DNA of 64,000 bases, from assembly GCA_050250895.1 (NCBI GenBank), contig JBFWNU010000008.1:160001-224000 (forward strand). Reading direction: 5' to 3'. Positions 2,499 to 50,849 of this stretch are shown one piece after another. The stretch's first letter is position 1; each line of letters begins with the position of its first letter. Position numbers and translations under genes: made by a program. The notes beneath the pieces are model-generated. The model had not been told where the DNA came from and searched no databases. It was given only the letters and a program-made list of their open reading frames with translations. This DNA comes from Vulcanimicrobiota bacterium. Its GTDB lineage: Bacteria; Vulcanimicrobiota; Xenobia; Xenobiales; JADMJV01.

Positions 2499-3077
2499 GG
2501 GAGACGGCGCTGACGCGCGGAGATTTCGGCCTGACGGCCGACGGGGAGCGCCGACTTCGTCGGCGGGAGGGAGCCGGCGCTGGCGCGCGGAGATTTCGGC
2601 CTGCGGCCGACAGGGAGCGCCGACTTCGTCGGCGGGTGAGGAGCCGGCGCTGACGCGCGGAGATTTCGGCCTGCGGCCGACAGGGAGAGCGGCTGACGCC
2701 GCTGGAAGGAGCCGGCGCTGCGCGCGGAGATTTCGGCCTGCGGCCGACAGGGAGCGCCGACTTCGTCGGCGGGTGACCTTTTCCCGAACTGAGCGACAGC
2801 TCAGTTCGCTCCTTCCCGGCCCGAAGGGCCGCTCCTTATCCCTCGAGCGAAGCAAGAGCTCCTTCTCCCGAACTGAGCGACAGCTCAGTTCGCTCCTCTC
2901 CCGGCCCGAAGGGCCGCTCCTTATCCCTCGAGCGAAGCAAGAGCTCCTTCTCCCGACTGAGCGACAGCTCAGTCGCTCCTCTCCCGGCCCGAAGGGCCGC
3001 TCCTTATCCCTCGAGCGAAGCAAGAGCTCCTTCTCCCGAACTGAGCGACAGCTCAGTTCGCTCCTCTCCCGCGAGGG
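2499..3077. repeat. Bipartite hairpin array 1: four ~70-bp units with GGAG linkers, then ~3.3 units of 83-85 bp with CTCC linkers
   Basis: Left units start near 2500/2570/2640/2708 with hairpins TCGGCC-tgc-GGCCGA and CGCCGAC-ttc-GTCGGCG. Right units start at 2785/2869/2954/3037 with CGAACTGAGC-gaca-GCTCAGTTCG and CGGCCC-gaa-GGGCCG. Confidence 0.95.
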
Positions 3078-12415: not shown

Positions 12416-13696
12416 ATGAGTAAGCAAGAATTTATCCGAAACCTGGAAGCCCGCTGGCAAAGCGAGGCTCGCTGGAAAGGCATCCAGCGCCCCTATTCGG
12501 CCGAGGACGTCTGGCGTTTGCGCGGCTCGTTCGAGATCGAATACACCCTGGCCAAGATGGGTGCCGACCGACTCTGGAAGTTACTCCATAGCGAAGACTA
12601 CGTCAATGTGCTTTCGGCCGTGACCGGCAATCAGGCCATCCAGGAAGTGCAGGCCGGCCTGAAGGCCATTTATGTCAGTGGCTGGCAGGTGGCTGGCGAT
12701 ATGAACAACGCCATGCACATGTACCCGGACCAAAGCCTCTATCCCAGCAACAGTGTGCCCTTCCTGATCCGCCGCATCAACAATTCGCTGATGCGGGCCG
12801 ACCAGATCCACCACCTGGGTGGCGACACCTCGGTTCACTGGATGGCTCCCATCGTAGCCGACGCTGAAGCTGGTTTCGGTGGTCCCTTGCACGCCTTCGA
12901 GATCATGAAGGATATGATCGAAAATGGCGTAGCCGGTGTGCACTTTGAAGACCAGTTGGCCTCGGTCAAAAAATGCGGCCACCTGGGCGGCAAGGTGCTG
13001 GTGCCCACCCGCGAATTCGTGACCAAGCTCGTGGCTGCTCGCCTGGCCGCCGACGTCTGCGGCGTGGACACCATTCTCATTGCTCGCACGGATGCCGATA
13101 GCGCCGGTCTGCTAACCTCGGATGTCGACCCCTACGACCACGACTATATCACCAGTCAAGAGCGCACTCACGAGGGCTTCTTCCCAGTCAAGCCCGGAGT
13201 CGAGCAGGCCATCGCTCGCGGCCTGGCCTATGCTCCCTTCGCCGACCTGCTGTGGATGGAGACCTCGCACCCTGACCTCGGTCAGGCCCAGCAGTTCGCT
13301 GACGCCATCCACGCCAAATTCCCCGGGAAGATGCTGGCCTATAACTGCTCGCCGTCGTTCAACTGGCGCCTCAAGCTCTCTGAAGCCGAGTGCGAAGCCT
13401 TCCAGCGCGAGATCGGCAAGATGGGCTACAAGTTCCAGTTCGTCACTCTGTCGGCGTTCCACCAGCTCAACTACGGCATGTTCCGTCTGGCCCAGGGCTA
13501 CAAGGCCCGCGGCATGGCTGCCTACGCCGAGCTGCAGACGGCCGAGTTCGAAGCCGAGAAAGACGGCTACGAAGCCATTCGCCACCAACAGTTTGTGGGT
13601 ACCGGATATTTCGACGCCGTCACCGAGGTGGCCACCGGTGGCCAATCCTCGACCACGGCCATGGCCGGTTCGACCGAGGCCGAACAGTTTCACTAG
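12416..13696 (+). CDS. aceA: Isocitrate lyase
   Basis: Signature [11 protein letters not shown], plus [11 protein letters not shown] and GSTEAEQF. Confidence 0.98.
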
Positions 13697-14154
13697 GCGC
13701 TCGCTTCGCTCGCGCCGGGGAGCTGCGACGGCTTTGCCGTCGAGAAAGGAGCTGCGACGGCTTTGCCGTCGAGAAAGGAGCGCCGGCTGCGCCGTCGAGA
13801 GGGGAGCCGGGCTGCGCCCGGAGATGGGAGCGCTGGCTTCGCTTGCGCTCGCCAGCGAGGACGGCTTCGCCGTCGGCAGCCAGGCCCTTCGTGGCCGAAG
13901 GCCATCGAAGGTTTGCGGCCGCAGGCCGCCTATCTAATCCCTCGAAACGAGCGACAGCGAGTTTCGCTCCTATCTCGGAGCTTGCTCCGCTCCCATCTCA
14001 AGCCGAAGGCTGCTCCTTTCTCGGCCACGCAGTGGCCGCTTCCTTCTCGCGAGCAACGCGAGCGTCGGCTCCTTTCTCAGCCACGCAGTGGCCGCTCCCT
14101 TCTCGCGAGCGTAGCGAGCGTTGCTCCTTTTCTCGGCCACGCAGTGGCCGCTCC
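13696..14154. repeat. Bipartite hairpin array 2 (left flank of the four-helix-bundle gene)
   Basis: Hairpins separated by AGAnnGGAG (left half), then CTCCnnTCT (right half). The 66-bp core at 13905-13970 is identical to 14788-14853. Confidence 0.95.
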
Positions 14155-14161
14155 CTACTCG

Positions 14162-14536
14162 CTACTGGGCCTGAGGTTCTGCCAAGAGTCTGCGACTCAG
14201 GCCTGTCAAGATGCGTCGCATCTCGGCGATGCAGCCCATCACTTGCTTGAGGTCTTCGGGACGCAGATACTCGAGCTTCAAGCTAATCAGAAACAGAGTT
14301 TCCACCTCGGCCAGACTTCCCCGCGCGACTCCCACATGGTAAGCGAAGGTGCGAACGGATTCGCGCGCCTGCCCCTCGGCGAGGTTGGCGACGATGGAGA
14401 CACTAGCTCGACGAAGTTGGCTTGTCAGGCCAAACTGTTCATTGCTCGGGAGGCGGCTTGTCAGTCGATAGACGAGCGGAACGAATTCCATTCCCTTTTG
14501 CCAGGCTGCGAGTTGTTTGTATGGTAAATGATGCAT
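14162..14536 (-). CDS. Four-helix-bundle protein (23S rRNA IVP / TIGR02436 family, Avd-like fold)
   Basis: YKQLAAWQKGM, LPSNEQFGLTSQLRRASVSIVANLAEG and ARGSLAEVET signatures. Confidence 0.93.
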   Translation of the reverse strand: MHHLPYKQLAAWQKGMEFVPLVYRLTSRLPSNEQFGLTSQLRRASVSIVANLAEGQARESVRTFAYHVGVARGSLAEVETLFLISLKLEYLRPEDLKQVMGCIAEMRRILTGLSRRLLAEPQAQ

Positions 14537-14585
14537 CGAGGCTTCTTCGACCCGACGTTTGCCGCTCCCGTCGAACGAATGTCCA

Positions 14586-15005
14586 GAGCGACGGCTTTGC
14601 CGAGGATCGCCGGCTGCGCCGTCGAGACAGGAGCGCTCGCTGCGCTCGCGAGATGGGAGCGCTGGCTTCGCTTGCGCTCGCCAGCGAGGAGGGAGCGCCG
14701 GCTGCGCCGTCGAGACAGGAGCCGGGCTGCGCCCGGAGATGGGAGCACTGGCCTCGCTTGCGCTCGCCAGCGAGGACGGCTTCGCCGTCGAAGGTTTGCG
14801 GCCGCAGGCCGCCTATCTAATCCCTCGAAACGAGCGACAGCGAGTTTCGCTCCCATCTCGGAGCTCTGCTCCGGTCCCATCTCCGGCCGAAGGCCGGCTC
14901 CTTTCTCGGCCACGCAGTGGCCGCTCCCTTCTCGCGAGCGTAGCGAGCGTTGCTCCTTTCTCGGCCACGCAGTGGCCGCTCCCCTTCTCGCGAGCGTAGC
15001 GAGCG
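14586..15005. repeat. Bipartite hairpin array 3 (right flank of the four-helix-bundle gene), a direct-repeat variant of array 2
   Basis: Same modules (CGCCGGC-tgc-GCCGTCG, CCGGGC-tgc-GCCCGG, CGGCCAC-gca-GTGGCCG, CGCGAGC-gta-GCGAGCG) in different number and order, with the identical 66-bp core. Confidence 0.95.
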
Positions 15006-15089
15006 AACATGGCCCGAACGGGTGATTGGCAGGCCAGGGTGCCTCCCGTATGCTTGAAAGCAAATCTACCCTTGGGAGGCGCATTTCCT

Positions 15090-16322
15090 ATGGAAAGCGG
15101 ACACATCGCCTGGATGCTCTTGAGCACAGCGCTGGTGTTGTTGATGACGCCCGGTCTGGCCTTTTTCTACGGCGGGCTGGTGCGGTCCAAGAACACCCTT
15201 AACACCATGATGATGAGCTTCGCGGCGCTGGGTGTCATCGGGATTACCTGGGCGTTGGTCGGCTACAGTCTGGCCTTCGGTGGGGCCGGAAAGTGGCTCG
15301 GCGGAGGCGCCCATCTGCTCTTGCAGGGCGTTGACCTGCAAGCAAAAGGCTCCATTCCGCACCTATTGTTCATGGCTTTCCAGGGAACCTTCGCGGTGAT
15401 CACCGCAGCTCTCATTTCGGGCGCCATTGTGGGCAGGATGCGGTTTGCCCCGTACCTGGCCTTCATCACGCTGTGGAGTCTGCTGGTTTATGCTCCGCTT
15501 TGCCACTGGGTATGGGGTGAAGGTGGCTGGTTGGCCGGCCTGGGAGCCCTCGATTTCGCGGGCGGCACGGTGGTTCACATCAACGCCGGTGTAGCCGCTC
15601 TGGTATTGGCGCTGGTGTTGGGCCCCCGCAGCGAGCACGGGCGCCTGGCCATGCTCGCTCACAACGTTCCCTTCGTGATTCTCGGTTCGGCTATGCTGTG
15701 GTTCGGATGGTTCGGTTTCAACGGCGGCAGCGCCCTCGAGGCCAACGAACAGGGCGTGCTGGCTTTCGTCAACACCATGCTGGCTCCGATGGCAACCCTG
15801 GTGGTCTGGATGCTCACCGACCTGGTGCGTGATCACCGCGCCAATGCGGTGGGGGCGGCCACGGCGGTGGTGGTCGGATTGGTGGCCATTACCCCGGCGG
15901 CCGGGTTCGTGTCGCCTCTGTCAGCCATCCTGATCGGCGCTATTGCAACCTTCCCCAGCTATATTGCTATCCAGATGAAGCACAAATGGGCCCTCGATGA
16001 CTCGCTCGATGTGTTCGCTGGCCACGGGCTCGGTGGTATCGTAGGGGCAATGCTGACCGGTGTTTTTGCTAACTCGGCGTGGGGCGGCTCGGCGATGGGC
16101 GGGTTTACCCAGGTCGGCATCCAGTTCGCGGCCGTGCTGGCTGCCGCGGCTTACAGCGCTATCGCGTCGTTTGCCCTGATCAAGCTGGTAGGGGCCTTCA
16201 TGGCCTTGCGTCCTCAGGTTCAGGAAGAGGGTCTGGGACTCGACATCTCTCAGCACGGCGAAGAGGCCTACTCGACCGGCGAGGGCGCTATTCTCATTCT
16301 CTCTCGGAAAAAGGCCGGTTAG
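15090..16322 (+). CDS. amtB: Ammonium transporter
   Basis: LMTPGLAFFYGG, LDFAGGTVVHINAG, LWFGWFGFNGGS and DDSLDVFAGHG motifs. GGAGG RBS. Confidence 0.96.
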   Translation: MESGHIAWMLLSTALVLLMTPGLAFFYGGLVRSKNTLNTMMMSFAALGVIGITWALVGYSLAFGGAGKWLGGGAHLLLQGVDLQAKGSIPHLLFMAFQGTFAVITAALISGAIVGRMRFAPYLAFITLWSLLVYAPLCHWVWGEGGWLAGLGALDFAGGTVVHINAGVAALVLALVLGPRSEHGRLAMLAHNVPFVILGSAMLWFGWFGFNGGSALEANEQGVLAFVNTMLAPMATLVVWMLTDLVRDHRANAVGAATAVVVGLVAITPAAGFVSPLSAILIGAIATFPSYIAIQMKHKWALDDSLDVFAGHGLGGIVGAMLTGVFANSAWGGSAMGGFTQVGIQFAAVLAAAAYSAIASFALIKLVGAFMALRPQVQEEGLGLDISQHGEEAYSTGEGAILILSRKKAG

Positions 16323-48128: not shown

Positions 48129-50849
48129 ATGGCCTCATCATCAGATTCCTTGACCCTCGAGGAACAGCTCAACGAACTCCGCGAGGAGAACCGCGGTCTG
48201 CGCGAGCAGATCTCCGGTCCCGACCTGAGCGCGTTCGAGCAAAACCGCCAGCTCAAGATCGAACGCAAGAAGCTGCAGGATGACGTCCGCCGGTTGACTT
48301 CAGAGTGTGTCCAATTGACCTTCCAGATCCGCGAACTCGAGGGCAAGCTGTCTGACACCGAGGGCAAACTCCAGGCCACCGAAGGAAAGCTTCGCGATGC
48401 CGAAGACCAGCTGCGCCAGGCCCACGAAGAGGCCGATGGGTACCGGGCCAGCATCGAACAGCATCGCTCTCAGGAGATGATGCTCAGCCAGGAGCTTGAA
48501 GATACACGGACTACCAACGCCGACACTTTGAAAAAGCTCGAGCAAGAGCGCGAAGAGCAGCTTCGCCAGCTTGAGCAAGAACGCGAGCAAGAGCGGCGCC
48601 GGCTCGAAGAGGAGCGGGAAGCGGCTCTGGCCGAGGCCGAAGAGCGGATGCAATCCGAGATCGCCCAGCGCGAGGGCCAGATCGGCGAGCTGCGTCAGCG
48701 GGTGGATGAGTTCAAAGAGCAGTTCTTGAGCACCGAACTGCCGGCGCTGGATGCCGACGCGTCGATCGGAGAAGGACGCGCCTTCTCGCTGTTGACCGAG
48801 CATCTCGAGCGTTTGCTCGGCTATCCCGGTCGGACCCTGGTCGAGCAGGTCTTCTCGCTCTGCCGGGCCGATTTCTCCACCTCCGATCCCAAGCAGCTCG
48901 AAGACGTCTTCGAGGCCCTGCAAGACACCGCCAGCAAACTGGTGCGCAGTCCCGACCAGGAGAAAGAGTTGGCCGACGTACTGGCGGCATGCTGGGCCGA
49001 ACTTGGCGTGTCCGAAGAGCGGCCGGCCAGGACGGCTGAGGCGACCCCCACCGAACCCGAGCCCGAGTCGGTCGAAGAGACGCCGACCGCCCCCGAGCGC
49101 GAGGTGGTCGAAGAAGCTGCCGTCGAAGAGGACGTGAGCGAGGAACCGGTGGTCGAAGAACCCGTGGTCGAGGAACCCGTGGTCGAGGAACCGGTGGTGG
49201 AAGAGCCGGTTGTCGAAGAACCCGTGGTCGAGGAGCCGGTGGTAGAAGAGCCCGTGGCAGAAGAGCCCGCTGCCGAAGAAGCAGAGAGCGAGCCGGAGGT
49301 GGCCGAGGCTGTGGCCGAAGGAGCCGCCACCGGTGCGGCTACTGGTGAGGTCACCTTCGAATCCGCCGTCGCGCTGCTTCACGAAGGCCAGTTTGACCAG
49401 GCGGCCGCCCAGTTCGAAACGTTGCGGTCGGGTGATGGCGGCAACGAGGTCAGTGTCGGGCTGATGAGCGCCCAGATCGGAGCCGGTCGGGTCGACGACG
49501 CGGTGGAGCTGGGTCTGAACCTGCGAGGCCAGGACCTTGGCGAAGCCGAAGAACAGTTCCGCAGCGTCTGGGAAACGACCCTGACGACCAAGCTCAAGAA
49601 CCCGGACAGCGACCTGCAACGCAAACGGCTGCTGCTCGCCCTGGCCGAGCTCAAGTTGCCTGCCGAGGCGGGACTCGAAGCTCTCGACGAAGCCGAGCAG
49701 ATTCCGGTTCGGCTCGACGAAGACGGCTTGCTCAGCTACTATCAGGTCGTCTCGCGAGTCGACAATGAGGATGTCACCGCCTATCTGCTCGACTACATGC
49801 ACTCGCTGGGCGATAAGCCCGAGTTGTTCGAGCATCTCTCCAAGAACTTTTCGCGCTATCCCGAAATCGCCAAGGTGGCCGAAGCGGTCGTGGCGCTGGC
49901 CGGACAATCCCGAACCGGGGCCCAGGAGGCCGAAGAGGCGGCCGGCGAGTTGCTCGCCCCGCAGTACGCTACCCGTGAGATGGCCGAGGAGATCGGTGAC
50001 CCCGGCGAAGAGGCCATGGTCGAGGTCTTTCTCGACCACCTGATCCCCCGGGCCGGCCTCGAATTGCCGGTGCCGTCCGACGAGTTCGAAGAGTTTCTCC
50101 ATGACTCCGAGCCGGCCGCGTTCGTAGGTTCGCTGCGCCAGGCTCTGCGCAACATCGACTATACCGTCTTCTTTGAGGAGATCGAGGTGTTGAGTTATGC
50201 GGGCGAGGCCGATTTTCTGGTCGAGAGCTGTCCTGAGCCCACGCCCACGCTGCTGTTCCACTCCAAGGTCGAGAACGTGCCGCCCGAAGAGTTACGTTTT
50301 CTGGTTTTTCGCCGGCTGGTTCAGATGTATCGTCGCCACGCCTATCTCGAACATATGGCCCGCGCTCTCGACGACGCCGCCCGTTGCAAGCTGGTCAAAG
50401 CTTGCATCGAGATTCACCAAGAATCCGAGTACGAGATTTCGCCGATGCTGGTCAGCCGGCTGGCAGAGATCTCGGCCCAGGCGGGGGAGGGCGATGACCC
50501 CGAGGTGCGCGGCCAACTCGACGCCTTGCTGGACAAGCTGTATGCCGACACCGGCAGCGACAGTTTCATCGAGCTGGGCGACTTTCTCTATGACAACCAG
50601 CTGGCCAAGAAATGGCTGGACCCGCTGGCCGACCAGTTCGCCGCCTCGGTGGTGGGTCTCACCACCGCGAGCTATGCGACCGCTCGCGATATGGTAGACG
50701 ATGAGCTATTTAGCGAACTCGAGGCCAAGGGTCTGGGTTTGCTCTGGCAAGACGAAAACCGCGAGCAGTACGAAGAACTTCGGCTGCGCTTGCAGCGACT
50801 CTGGCTTGGACCCCTCAAAGCGGCCAGCTACGAACTCGAAGAAGAATAA
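48129..50849 (+). CDS. Large acidic protein with N-terminal coiled coil, EEPVV repeats and helical C-terminus
   Basis: AGGAG RBS before MASSS. Heptad-rich N-terminus. Confidence 0.8.
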   Translation: MASSSDSLTLEEQLNELREENRGLREQISGPDLSAFEQNRQLKIERKKLQDDVRRLTSECVQLTFQIRELEGKLSDTEGKLQATEGKLRDAEDQLRQAHEEADGYRASIEQHRSQEMMLSQELEDTRTTNADTLKKLEQEREEQLRQLEQEREQERRRLEEEREAALAEAEERMQSEIAQREGQIGELRQRVDEFKEQFLSTELPALDADASIGEGRAFSLLTEHLERLLGYPGRTLVEQVFSLCRADFSTSDPKQLEDVFEALQDTASKLVRSPDQEKELADVLAACWAELGVSEERPARTAEATPTEPEPESVEETPTAPEREVVEEAAVEEDVSEEPVVEEPVVEEPVVEEPVVEEPVVEEPVVEEPVVEEPVAEEPAAEEAESEPEVAEAVAEGAATGAATGEVTFESAVALLHEGQFDQAAAQFETLRSGDGGNEVSVGLMSAQIGAGRVDDAVELGLNLRGQDLGEAEEQFRSVWETTLTTKLKNPDSDLQRKRLLLALAELKLPAEAGLEALDEAEQIPVRLDEDGLLSYYQVVSRVDNEDVTAYLLDYMHSLGDKPELFEHLSKNFSRYPEIAKVAEAVVALAGQSRTGAQEAEEAAGELLAPQYATREMAEEIGDPGEEAMVEVFLDHLIPRAGLELPVPSDEFEEFLHDSEPAAFVGSLRQALRNIDYTVFFEEIEVLSYAGEADFLVESCPEPTPTLLFHSKVENVPPEELRFLVFRRLVQMYRRHAYLEHMARALDDAARCKLVKACIEIHQESEYEISPMLVSRLAEISAQAGEGDDPEVRGQLDALLDKLYADTGSDSFIELGDFLYDNQLAKKWLDPLADQFAASVVGLTTASYATARDMVDDELFSELEAKGLGLLWQDENREQYEELRLRLQRLWLGPLKAASYELEEE
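49140..49274 (+). repeat. Coding 15-bp tandem repeat: (EEPVV)x7 plus EEPVA and EEPAA
   Basis: Direct translation. Synonymous codons vary between units. Confidence 0.92.

Follow-up and report, generated by a model that had tools for sequence, protein, structure and literature searches.

Between positions 13933 and 14154 of the window, by which we mean the whole 64,000-nt stretch of DNA analysed here (coordinates given without a contig name are positions in it, and its genome is designated G000), short hairpins with GNA loops and tandem G-A mismatches alternate with CTCC-type linkers in one constant strand polarity. At which level, DNA or RNA, does such a polarity arise? An earlier note on the sequence took the hairpins to be optimised for single-stranded DNA, running outward from the centre of an array on both strands as the substrate of an HUH nuclease, a primase or a reverse transcriptase, and offered CsrA-like or Shine-Dalgarno decoy sites in transcripts as the alternative. 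Repeats between bacterial genes, among them REP, BOX and runs of heptamers, have long been puzzling, as has the family of 23S rRNA intervening-sequence proteins (IVP), and in this genome a very clear single-strand signature is tied to IVP genes.

Two-armed arrays in the window

The interval is a stretch inside the CTCC (right) arm of a two-armed array (array 1, 13697-14160), which occupies the gap between the stop codon of the isocitrate lyase gene (13696) and the end of a small minus-strand gene (14162) (Table 1). Further arrays lie at 14560-15005 and 2500-3071. The sequences quoted in the earlier note were found where it had placed them: CGCGAGCGTAGCGAGCG at 14104-14120, CGAAACGAGCGACAGCGAGTTTCG at 13943-13966, GCGAAGC at 2847-2853 and the complement GCTTCGC at 13702-13708. 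The left-arm unit of array 1 reads C-hairpin-GAGA-NN-GGAG on the plus strand, with TTC, TGC or TTT loops on that strand, and the hairpins of the right arm are separated by linkers of the form CTCC(C/T)nTCTC. The centre of array 1 has about 15-20 similar copies across the genome. Arrays 1 and 2 share 93-98% identity across about 200 nt, the segment 14784-14865 matching 13901-13982 at 98%. The left arm of the third array resembles the arrays that flank the IVP gene on another contig (C2).

Table 1. Features of the three arrays and of the IVP gene in the window
Feature	Position	Strand	Description
Array 1, left (GGAG) arm	13697..13900	+	Begins right after the isocitrate lyase stop codon
Array 1, centre and right-arm inner end	13901..13942	+	Mini-hairpin GCGGCC-GCA-GGCCGC, then A/T-richer spacer TATCTAATCC
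Array 1, right (CTCC) arm	13943..14160	+	Tandem GA mismatches; hairpin loops GACA, GAA, GCA and GTA
IVP gene	14162..14536	-	124 aa; PF05635, 109.5 bits, E 1.2e-31
Stretch upstream of the IVP start codon	14565..14585	-	TGGACATTCGTTCGACGGGAG on the gene strand; conserved at 3/3 IVP genes
Array 2, left (GGAG) arm	14586..14790	+	93% identity to 13765-13875
Array 2, centre and right (CTCC) arm	14784..15005	+	Ends 3 nt ahead of the ammonium transporter start codon
Third array, left (GGAG) arm	2500..2776	+	Second linker type (ACAGGGAGC, GGAGATTT)
Third array, right (CTCC) arm	2777..3071	+	Period 85, 3.5 copies, 97% matches; literal GCGAAGC present

A strand-specific hairpin signature across the genome

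The genome (9.5 Mb in 17 contigs, 63% G+C, 99.64% complete) was searched with a purpose-written detector for the succession GGAG, hairpin, GGAG, so that every unit is anchored on GGAG. At least three units were required for an array, and the array and gene calls both come from rough purpose-written scripts. The detector returned 1,955 units in total, of which 958 were isolated and mostly due to chance, and at least 110 arrays with 787 units, 26.2 kb and 303 distinct hairpins over the whole genome. Because several contigs end in arrays, the number of arrays is a lower bound. Distinct hairpins rather than units were counted where possible, since the units within one array are often recent copies of each other. 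The arrays have grown in tandem: at periods of 85 and 55 one unit matches the next at 97-98%, and the array at C1:519804 holds 24 near-identical units.

Triloops make up 206 of the 303 distinct array hairpins. Loops of the GNA type were present in 107 distinct hairpins on the CTCC strand versus 4 on the GGAG strand, and the closing pair was C-G in 227/303. In the control set of 942 distinct isolated hairpins, mostly formed by chance, the corresponding numbers were 26 versus 11 for GNA and 333 versus 337 for C-G and G-C closing pairs. The tandem GA/GA mismatch (5'-GA/3'-AG on the CTCC strand) was found in 31 distinct hairpins, amounting to 101 units, and the TC/TC tandem mismatch in none of the 303. 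The numbers of G-T and A-C mismatches on the CTCC strand (8 versus 16) were not informative, their ratio being close to that in chance hairpins (53 versus 76). In 23,406 bp of arms, the counts of the heptamer GCGNAGC are 389 for the CTCC strand (16.6 per kb) and 56 for the GGAG strand (2.4 per kb); with a genome average of 0.52 per kb per strand, the CTCC strand of the arms is 32-fold enriched. The related GCGNNAGC was found 67 times on the CTCC strand and 6 times on the GGAG strand.

The strand-linked GNA and GA signature noticed at a single locus is thus real genome-wide, and the loop bias holds in the further copies represented by the 303 distinct hairpins. The claim that the CTCC sequence points away from the array centre on either strand is borne out as well, since 35 of the 37 orientation switches within arrays go from GGAG to CTCC and 2 go the reverse way. 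A double-linker pattern matched 218 times in the genome, and its reversed control had 0 matches. At the inner end of many arms there is a conserved 88-nt module, in which an A-rich spacer accompanies three mini-hairpins whose loops are GAA or of the CAAA type. The feature is strongly non-random, and the observation is confirmed throughout the genome; part of the loop bias could have been inherited from a common ancestral unit.

Genomic setting of the arrays

The arrays are intergenic, with 1,537 of 22,385 bp overlapping gene calls in a genome that is 85.5% coding. Positions between convergent genes are enriched (33/105 arrays versus 558/3,506 spacers) and positions between divergent genes are depleted (13/105 versus 1,090/3,506). 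Where an outer gene lies within 300 nt, it points into the array in 62 cases and away from it in 35, and the stop codon is often 1-30 nt away. No protein family except IVP recurs beside the arrays, and neither a conserved target site nor a duplication was seen by eye at the outer ends of lone arms. In a genome of the same genus (G001), the gene for isocitrate lyase is followed directly by that for the ammonium transporter. Because the spacer between them is there only a few tens of bases long, the 1.3-kb block of array, IVP gene and array in the window is an insertion relative to that genome.

Folding of the two strands as DNA and as RNA

Comparison of the folding energies of the two strands, a check proposed in the earlier note, gave the CTCC strand no advantage in nearest-neighbour models. 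The distinct hairpins are lower in energy on the CTCC strand than on the GGAG strand by 0.16 kcal/mol with RNA and by 0.01 kcal/mol with DNA parameters. For the interval as a whole it is the GGAG strand that folds lower, both as DNA (CTCC -49.5, z -3.3; GGAG -56.2, z -2.8) and as RNA (CTCC -89.0, z -3.2; GGAG -101.8, z -2.5). The parameters used showed no unusual stability for the mini-hairpins. According to the available part of PMC13037366, d(GCGAAGC) and d(GCGAAAGC) melt at 76.5 °C and r(GCGAAAGC) at 39 °C, DNA mini-hairpins are nuclease-resistant and are poorly bound by SSB, and their natural sites include the G4 origin, ssiA and the N4 promoters. With triloops prevailing and the GCGNAGC consensus present to the letter, we therefore lean towards DNA. 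For the view that the hairpins are optimised for single-stranded DNA the outcome is divided: the strand signature agrees with GCGNAGC and GCGNNAGC, but the folding models do not separate the strands.

At the level of whole arrays, long-range pairs account for 4,328 of the 7,700 RNA pairs predicted in 32 full arrays (56%), and the predicted folding energy of whole arrays is -0.57 kcal/mol per nt. A search against Rfam found no family at the gathering score in the window, and five further array loci (E up to 1) yielded two sub-threshold matches, to sX14 (26.9 bits) and ctRNA (20.9 bits). No sigma-70-like promoter was detected in the array centre; the two matches lie at 14498-14525 and 15026-15054.

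Orientation relative to replication and transcription

By the usual rule, the leading strand is the G-rich one, for which the one line of support in this genome is the position of dnaA (C1:1,144,953), exactly where the GC skew turns from negative to positive. Lone arms follow the skew. Their GGAG strand coincides with the G-rich strand in 35 cases versus 4 in regions of positive skew and in 23 versus 12 in regions of negative skew (p = 7e-7), and the association holds when the skew is computed over anything from 25 to 200 kb. When one lone arm per 20-kb bin was counted, p was 1.5e-5. Among isolated lone arms, i.e. those with no other array within 3 kb, the GGAG strand is the leading strand in 44/53 (p = 1.8e-6). 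The 88-nt inner module behaves in the same way: it has 93 matches, 71 of them strong, and 59 of these 71 have the CTCC orientation on the C-rich strand (p = 7e-9), and merging of the matches into 41 loci gave p = 9e-4.

No comparable link to transcription was observed. The outer neighbour gene lies on the GGAG strand in 28 cases versus 21 for 49 isolated arms (p = 0.39), and the arms in spacers between co-directional genes are oriented 19 versus 21. Since the orientation of lone arms tracks replication and not the transcription of neighbours, it argues for a process at the DNA level, where the strand bias is best explained. If the leading strand is G-rich, the CTCC strand corresponds to the nascent lagging-strand sequence and to the leading-strand template, and the GGAG strand is the lagging-strand template.

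This assignment bears on the enzymes for which the hairpins had been proposed as a substrate. In the 44/53 isolated arms the CTCC strand is the leading-strand template, and the exposed lagging-strand template is the GGAG strand, which argues against a primase as well as against routes of the IS200/IS605 type. An HUH nuclease is not supported either, as the profile of Y1 HUH transposases (PF01797) had 0 matches in the genome, with a control that matched in 6/14 genomes; the search with a Y2 transposase profile is to be read in the light of its control, which had no match anywhere. No reverse transcriptase (PF00078) was found in this 99.6% complete genome.

IVP genes and their cassettes

The product of the IVP gene in the window exceeds the cut-offs of PF05635 (33.8 bits) and of TIGR02436 (103 bits, cut-off 24) and matches the Avd model of diversity-generating retroelements (DGR) weakly, below the cut-off (E 1.9e-4). 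The family comprises four-helix bundles that are distantly Avd-like. The genome contains three IVP genes, whose proteins are 55-57% identical, and all three sit between two complete arrays in an identical layout. The other arrays contain no IVP remnants detectable by tblastn (E up to 10). The window locus lies outside 23S rRNA, between the isocitrate lyase and ammonium transporter genes, and nothing in the window matched rRNA. The arms that flank this gene are complementary over 33 nt (14093-14125 versus 14629-14661, 88%).

IVP genes are carried by 12 of 301 sampled genomes of the phylum. At 10 of the 11 loci inspected, short tandem repeats (mostly 7-mers) precede the gene and their reverse complement follows it, and at one the repeat is present on one side only. 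The repeat is specific to each genome. In these cassettes a purine-rich arm is found on the 5' side of the gene and the complement of that arm on the other. Arms of related cassettes use repeats without GGA, such as AGTATTT, CAGTGAC and GCGTGAC. On the gene strand of the window IVP gene the order is the reverse of that in 10/11 phylum cassettes, with the CTCC arm 5' and the GGAG arm 3'; the gene-less arrays keep the usual cassette polarity. The reversed arm order at the IVP genes between arrays counts against an explanation by the replication fork.

In the portion of PMC4990558 that was available, IVP genes are described as having been discovered within intervening sequences of rRNA, where the inverted repeats at the two ends pair into a stem that RNase III cleaves, and the Coxiella S23p ORF is reported to have heptameric repeats upstream, within an RNase III-processed intervening sequence. 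IVP genes also occur inside cas operons, as stated in the available text of PMC3936711. In the literature covered, a search for IVP genes with flanking repeats yielded only the Coxiella heptamer remark (PMC4990558) and the cas-operon genes (PMC3936711). In linker motif and polarity the arrays described here agree with the inverted arms at IVP genes of other genomes; they are a hairpin-bearing and mostly gene-less variant of the arms of IVP cassettes.

Occurrence in relatives and in public collections

A BLAST search with an arm gave no match in 30 relatives, and the double-linker pattern gave one stray match in them. In the same set, two intact IVP genes are present in one genome (G018), which belongs to another family of the order shared with the present genome, fragments with stop codons are present in a second (G030), and 28 relatives have none. 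G018 also contains 374 matches to the GGGAGNN heptamer pattern GGGAGNNGGGAGNNGGGAG (control 0), of which the other 29 relatives have 2 in total. Its arrays are plain heptamer runs, (GGGAGTA)n followed after about 70 nt by (CTCCCAT)n, and the polarity from GGAG to CTCC is kept in 6/6 adjacent plus/minus pairs among the matches listed. One of the two IVP genes of G018 is enclosed by heptamer arms that are 91% complementary over 34 nt.

Searches of public collections were pattern-based and do not by themselves show that the array family is absent elsewhere. In public genome contigs a triple-linker pattern matched at least 107 loci, with no array of varied hairpins among the matches listed. In those matches, nine linker pairs at five loci enclose a hairpin of at least five pairs; these have no GNA loop, their spacing suggests coding repeats, and they were rejected. 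In public metagenome contigs two patterns matched 0 and 8 loci, among which there are some short GGGAG repeats and no convincing hairpin array. The literature covered, which leaves out subscription journals, yielded no description of comparable hairpin arrays.

A model for the strand asymmetry

The evidence favours an asymmetry that arises at the DNA level and is linked to replication. The reading we prefer, to which we give about even chances of being correct, is that of an intergenic two-armed repeat of the IVP type, the strand asymmetry of which is set at the replication fork and tied to the amplification of the repeat itself. Each arm would be built from an inner mini-hairpin module and a variable number of units, each composed of a pyrimidine linker and a short GC hairpin. 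The two arms usually meet at their inner ends, a layout probably inherited from the IVP cassette. The repeat family would be a form, with hairpins added, of the inverted arms of short repeats found on either side of IVP genes in many bacteria. The element was inserted in this lineage and has since come to occupy about 110 intergenic sites, much as REP, BOX or MITE elements do.

The asymmetry itself may arise while the DNA is single-stranded at the fork. Stable, nuclease-resistant hairpins in the nascent lagging strand would favour the gain of units by strand slippage and would resist flap nucleases, and copies whose CTCC strand serves as the exposed lagging-strand template would be lost, the lone arms being the survivors. 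Slipped-strand gain and loss is the classical model for hairpin-forming repeats. The apparent optimisation of the hairpins would then reflect the amplification and survival of the element, with no dedicated HUH nuclease, primase or reverse transcriptase involved. Transcripts reading through an array would fold into a long stem similar to that of rRNA intervening sequences, which may explain why arrays are tolerated beside genes. The full arrays count against the model: they show no clear length advantage of the arm expected to grow (longer in 17/27 and 4/7 arrays), and the unit counts go the reverse of the prediction (125 versus 140 and 51 versus 28).

That the hairpins form in vivo, that their copy number changes and that the IVP protein contacts the repeats are suppositions. 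It is rather doubtful that the IVP protein acts in trans as the partner of a new kind of replication-coupled repeat, the arms of which would be handled at the fork as folded single strands of DNA, with the present genome as the extreme case, in which acquired mini-hairpins drive tandem amplification on the nascent lagging strand. The arrays would also provide a natural case in which the extraordinarily stable d(GCGNAGC) mini-hairpin is used hundreds of times in one chromosome.

Alternative explanations

The arrays may instead act as RNA, their arms pairing into a stem that is cut by RNase III or their hairpins protecting 3' ends or stopping transcription, and the bias would then serve RNA folding. 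We consider this unlikely, although it has a precedent in the IVP genes, which became known from RNase III-cut rRNA intervening sequences such as that with the Coxiella heptamers (PMC4990558, available in part). The preference of outer genes for pointing into the arrays (62 versus 35 within 300 nt, often with the stop codon 1-30 nt away) is in its favour, and the inner module, read along the GGAG strand, has a hairpin with AGTTTTTGA behind it, a succession that resembles a terminator; yet the orientation of the arms is independent of the neighbouring genes (28 versus 21; 19 versus 21) and strongly tied to replication, and neither an Rfam match nor a promoter-like site in the array centre was found. 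The low energy of whole arrays (-0.57 kcal/mol per nt, 56% long-range pairs) suits an RNA stem, but the loops are dominated by triloops (206/303) and not by GNRA or UNCG tetraloops. Sheared G-A pairs are also found in RNA, although the mini-hairpin is far less stable as RNA than as DNA, both according to the part of PMC13037366 that was available, and the strand present in entering transcripts would carry U-C/C-U mismatches in their place.

Among DNA-level alternatives to the fork model, an unrecognised enzyme, possibly with IVP as its nucleic-acid partner, could move or copy the arms as a dedicated single-stranded substrate, in the way of RAYT/REP or IS200/IS605 systems. Ton-Hoang et al. 2010 reportedly described a replication-linked orientation bias as typical of single-strand transposition, and such a bias is present here, together with DNA-type mini-hairpins that are confined mainly to one strand (389 versus 56); but this strand is on the leading-strand template and not on the exposed lagging-strand template. 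All three IVP genes are flanked by the repeats as RAYT genes are by REPs, and IVP genes and GGGAG-type arrays co-occur in two genomes that belong to different families, whereas 27 of the 30 relatives have neither and G030 has only IVP fragments. The IVP protein, however, is a helical bundle of 124 aa with no known catalytic site, and neither a Y1 transposase nor a reverse transcriptase was found in a genome that is 99.6% complete. A TTAC immediately 5' of the conserved hairpin in the inner module would suit such an enzyme, but no conserved target site was seen by eye at the outer ends. We regard this explanation as improbable. The proposal that transcripts entering the arrays expose GGA or GGAG motifs between the hairpins as decoys for CsrA or for ribosomes fared worst and is very improbable. 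The check for csrA was positive, GGAG linkers do lie between hairpins, and entering transcripts read the GGAG arm first; but the orientation of arms is unrelated to the neighbouring genes, the 787 units at 110 sites have no promoter or defined gene, and no match to a CsrB/Rsm-type family of Rfam was obtained. Moreover, the well-structured strand, on which the structure appears to have been selected, is the CTCC strand, and arms of related cassettes carry no GGA.

Comparison with known systems

The IVP (S23p) cassettes, such as the ORF-bearing intervening sequences in the 23S rRNA of Coxiella and Leptospira, share with the arrays the PF05635 gene, inverted arms of short purine-rich repeats, the order of a purine-rich arm followed by its complement, and the ability of the arms to pair into a long stem. 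In both, the element is an acquired insertion between genes and gene-less copies exist. The present arrays differ in that their linkers are separated by GC hairpins with DNA mini-hairpin cores, in the conserved 88-nt inner module, in the presence of about 110 gene-less arrays, and in that the IVP genes are situated between two complete arrays rather than in the middle of one, and not in rRNA.

With the REP/BIME-RAYT (REPIN) systems of enterobacteria and pseudomonads the arrays have in common multi-copy, intergenic, short imperfect palindromes clustered in arrays, and a low-copy gene flanked by its own repeats, which are thought to act as folded single strands. Unlike in those systems, no RAYT (Y1 HUH) gene was found and the flanked gene encodes a small helical bundle, the stems vary and the linkers are constant, and the arms meet at their inner ends. 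In Streptococcus pneumoniae, BOX elements, like similar modular repeats, consist of a terminal module and a variable number of copies of a tandem module, are intergenic and have a strong predicted secondary structure. The modular build, the location and the predicted structure are shared with the arrays, whereas there is no sequence relation, and the arrays are two-armed, IVP-linked and oriented relative to replication.

In contrast to IS200/IS605 elements, there is no TnpA-type (PF01797) match and the hairpin-rich strand is on the leading-strand template (44/53 isolated arms); in contrast to the CsrB/RsmZ sponge RNAs, there is no Rfam match and no promoter-like site at the arrays, with csrA present. 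The d(GCGNAGC) and d(GCGNNAGC) mini-hairpins of Hirao and co-workers are matched in their exact consensus, including the sheared G-A closing pair and the C-G stacking. The examples in the available part of PMC13037366 are single sites in phage or plasmid priming origins or N4 promoters, whereas the present ones number in the hundreds, form chromosomal tandem arrays, and are located on the strand other than the lagging-strand template.

Arrays and contig ends

Arrays form the ends of several contigs of the genome and hence matter for the assembly of such genomes. Contigs from sludge metagenomes, which seem to contain a close relative, also break at arrays. One joint, seen in two runs with 33 letters on its shorter side, skips from 13875 to 14690 (814 nt); the joint may derive from another copy of the array and was given no weight.

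Modules and linkers of the arrays

An 88-nt module is found 93 times at inner arm ends in the contigs of G000, the Vulcanimicrobiota genome of the window, and has the consensus CGGCGGCGAAGCCGCC CCAGAGTTA CGACGCGAAGCGTCG AGTACCTCAAAAACT CGAGGTGAGCCACAGCGAACCTCG. The example copies on C1, C9 and C2 (table) lie outside the window, which contains a related copy. Its second hairpin is directly adjoined by TTAC, and its opposite strand resembles a hairpin with a run of T behind it. Rfam holds no match to the module. Several contigs start or finish in arrays. The repeats appear to have broken the assembly, and the number of arrays is consequently underestimated.

At least two linker sub-families were distinguished in the arrays of G000. 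Linkers of the type ACAGGGAGC, GGGAAAAGGAGCC are common to the window array at 2500-3071 and the arrays around the gene for the 23S rRNA intervening-sequence protein (IVP) on contig C2, and the GAGA-NN-GGAGC type surrounds the IVP genes of contigs C8 and C6. This division of the two linker types among the IVP loci raises the possibility that IVP genes and repeats form cognate gene-repeat pairs.

Repeat features in G000 and in the relative G018 (contig or locus, positions)
Feature	Location
Example copy of the 88-nt module	C1:473060-473146
Example copy of the 88-nt module	C9:199172-199257
Example copy of the 88-nt module	C2:353932-354017
Copy related to the 88-nt module	window 14777-14858
ACAGGGAGC/GGGAAAAGGAGCC-type linkers	window 2500-2776
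ACAGGGAGC/GGGAAAAGGAGCC-type linkers	C2:652700-654100
Array at contig end	C4:83-298
Array at contig end	C5:17-331
Array at contig end	C6:99-446
Array at contig end	C2:984441-984695
Opposed GGGAGNN arms, G018	L133 1498-1690
Opposed GGGAGNN arms, G018	L124 1392-1880

The IVP cassette in relatives and metagenomes

In G018, a relative from another family of the order, runs of the heptamer GGGAGNN (374 matches) are laid out as two opposed arms. One pair has an IVP gene between its arms, precisely in the gap that separates two convergent genes. In the same-genus relative G001, a plain terminator-like site occupies the orthologous spacer that holds 1.3 kb of arrays in G000. There, a short hairpin and TTTTTTT lie directly 3' of the isocitrate lyase stop codon (L159 2733-2760).

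Over positions 14137-14603, the window IVP gene is ~98% identical to sludge and bioreactor metagenome contigs from four runs, X1-X4 (8 other letters and 7 gaps in 467 nt, 1 of 152 and 6 of 337 nt differing), whereas the genes on either side, for isocitrate lyase and the ammonium transporter, reach ~92% (compared over 12643-13051 and 14982-15530). Judged from these identities, the IVP cassette may have arrived later than the DNA around it, or may be exchanged more often. The matching contigs may come from more than one organism.

Elsewhere in the window, a tandem repeat with the 15-nt unit GTGGTCGAAGAACCC spans 49103-49280 (~12 copies, 75% matches).
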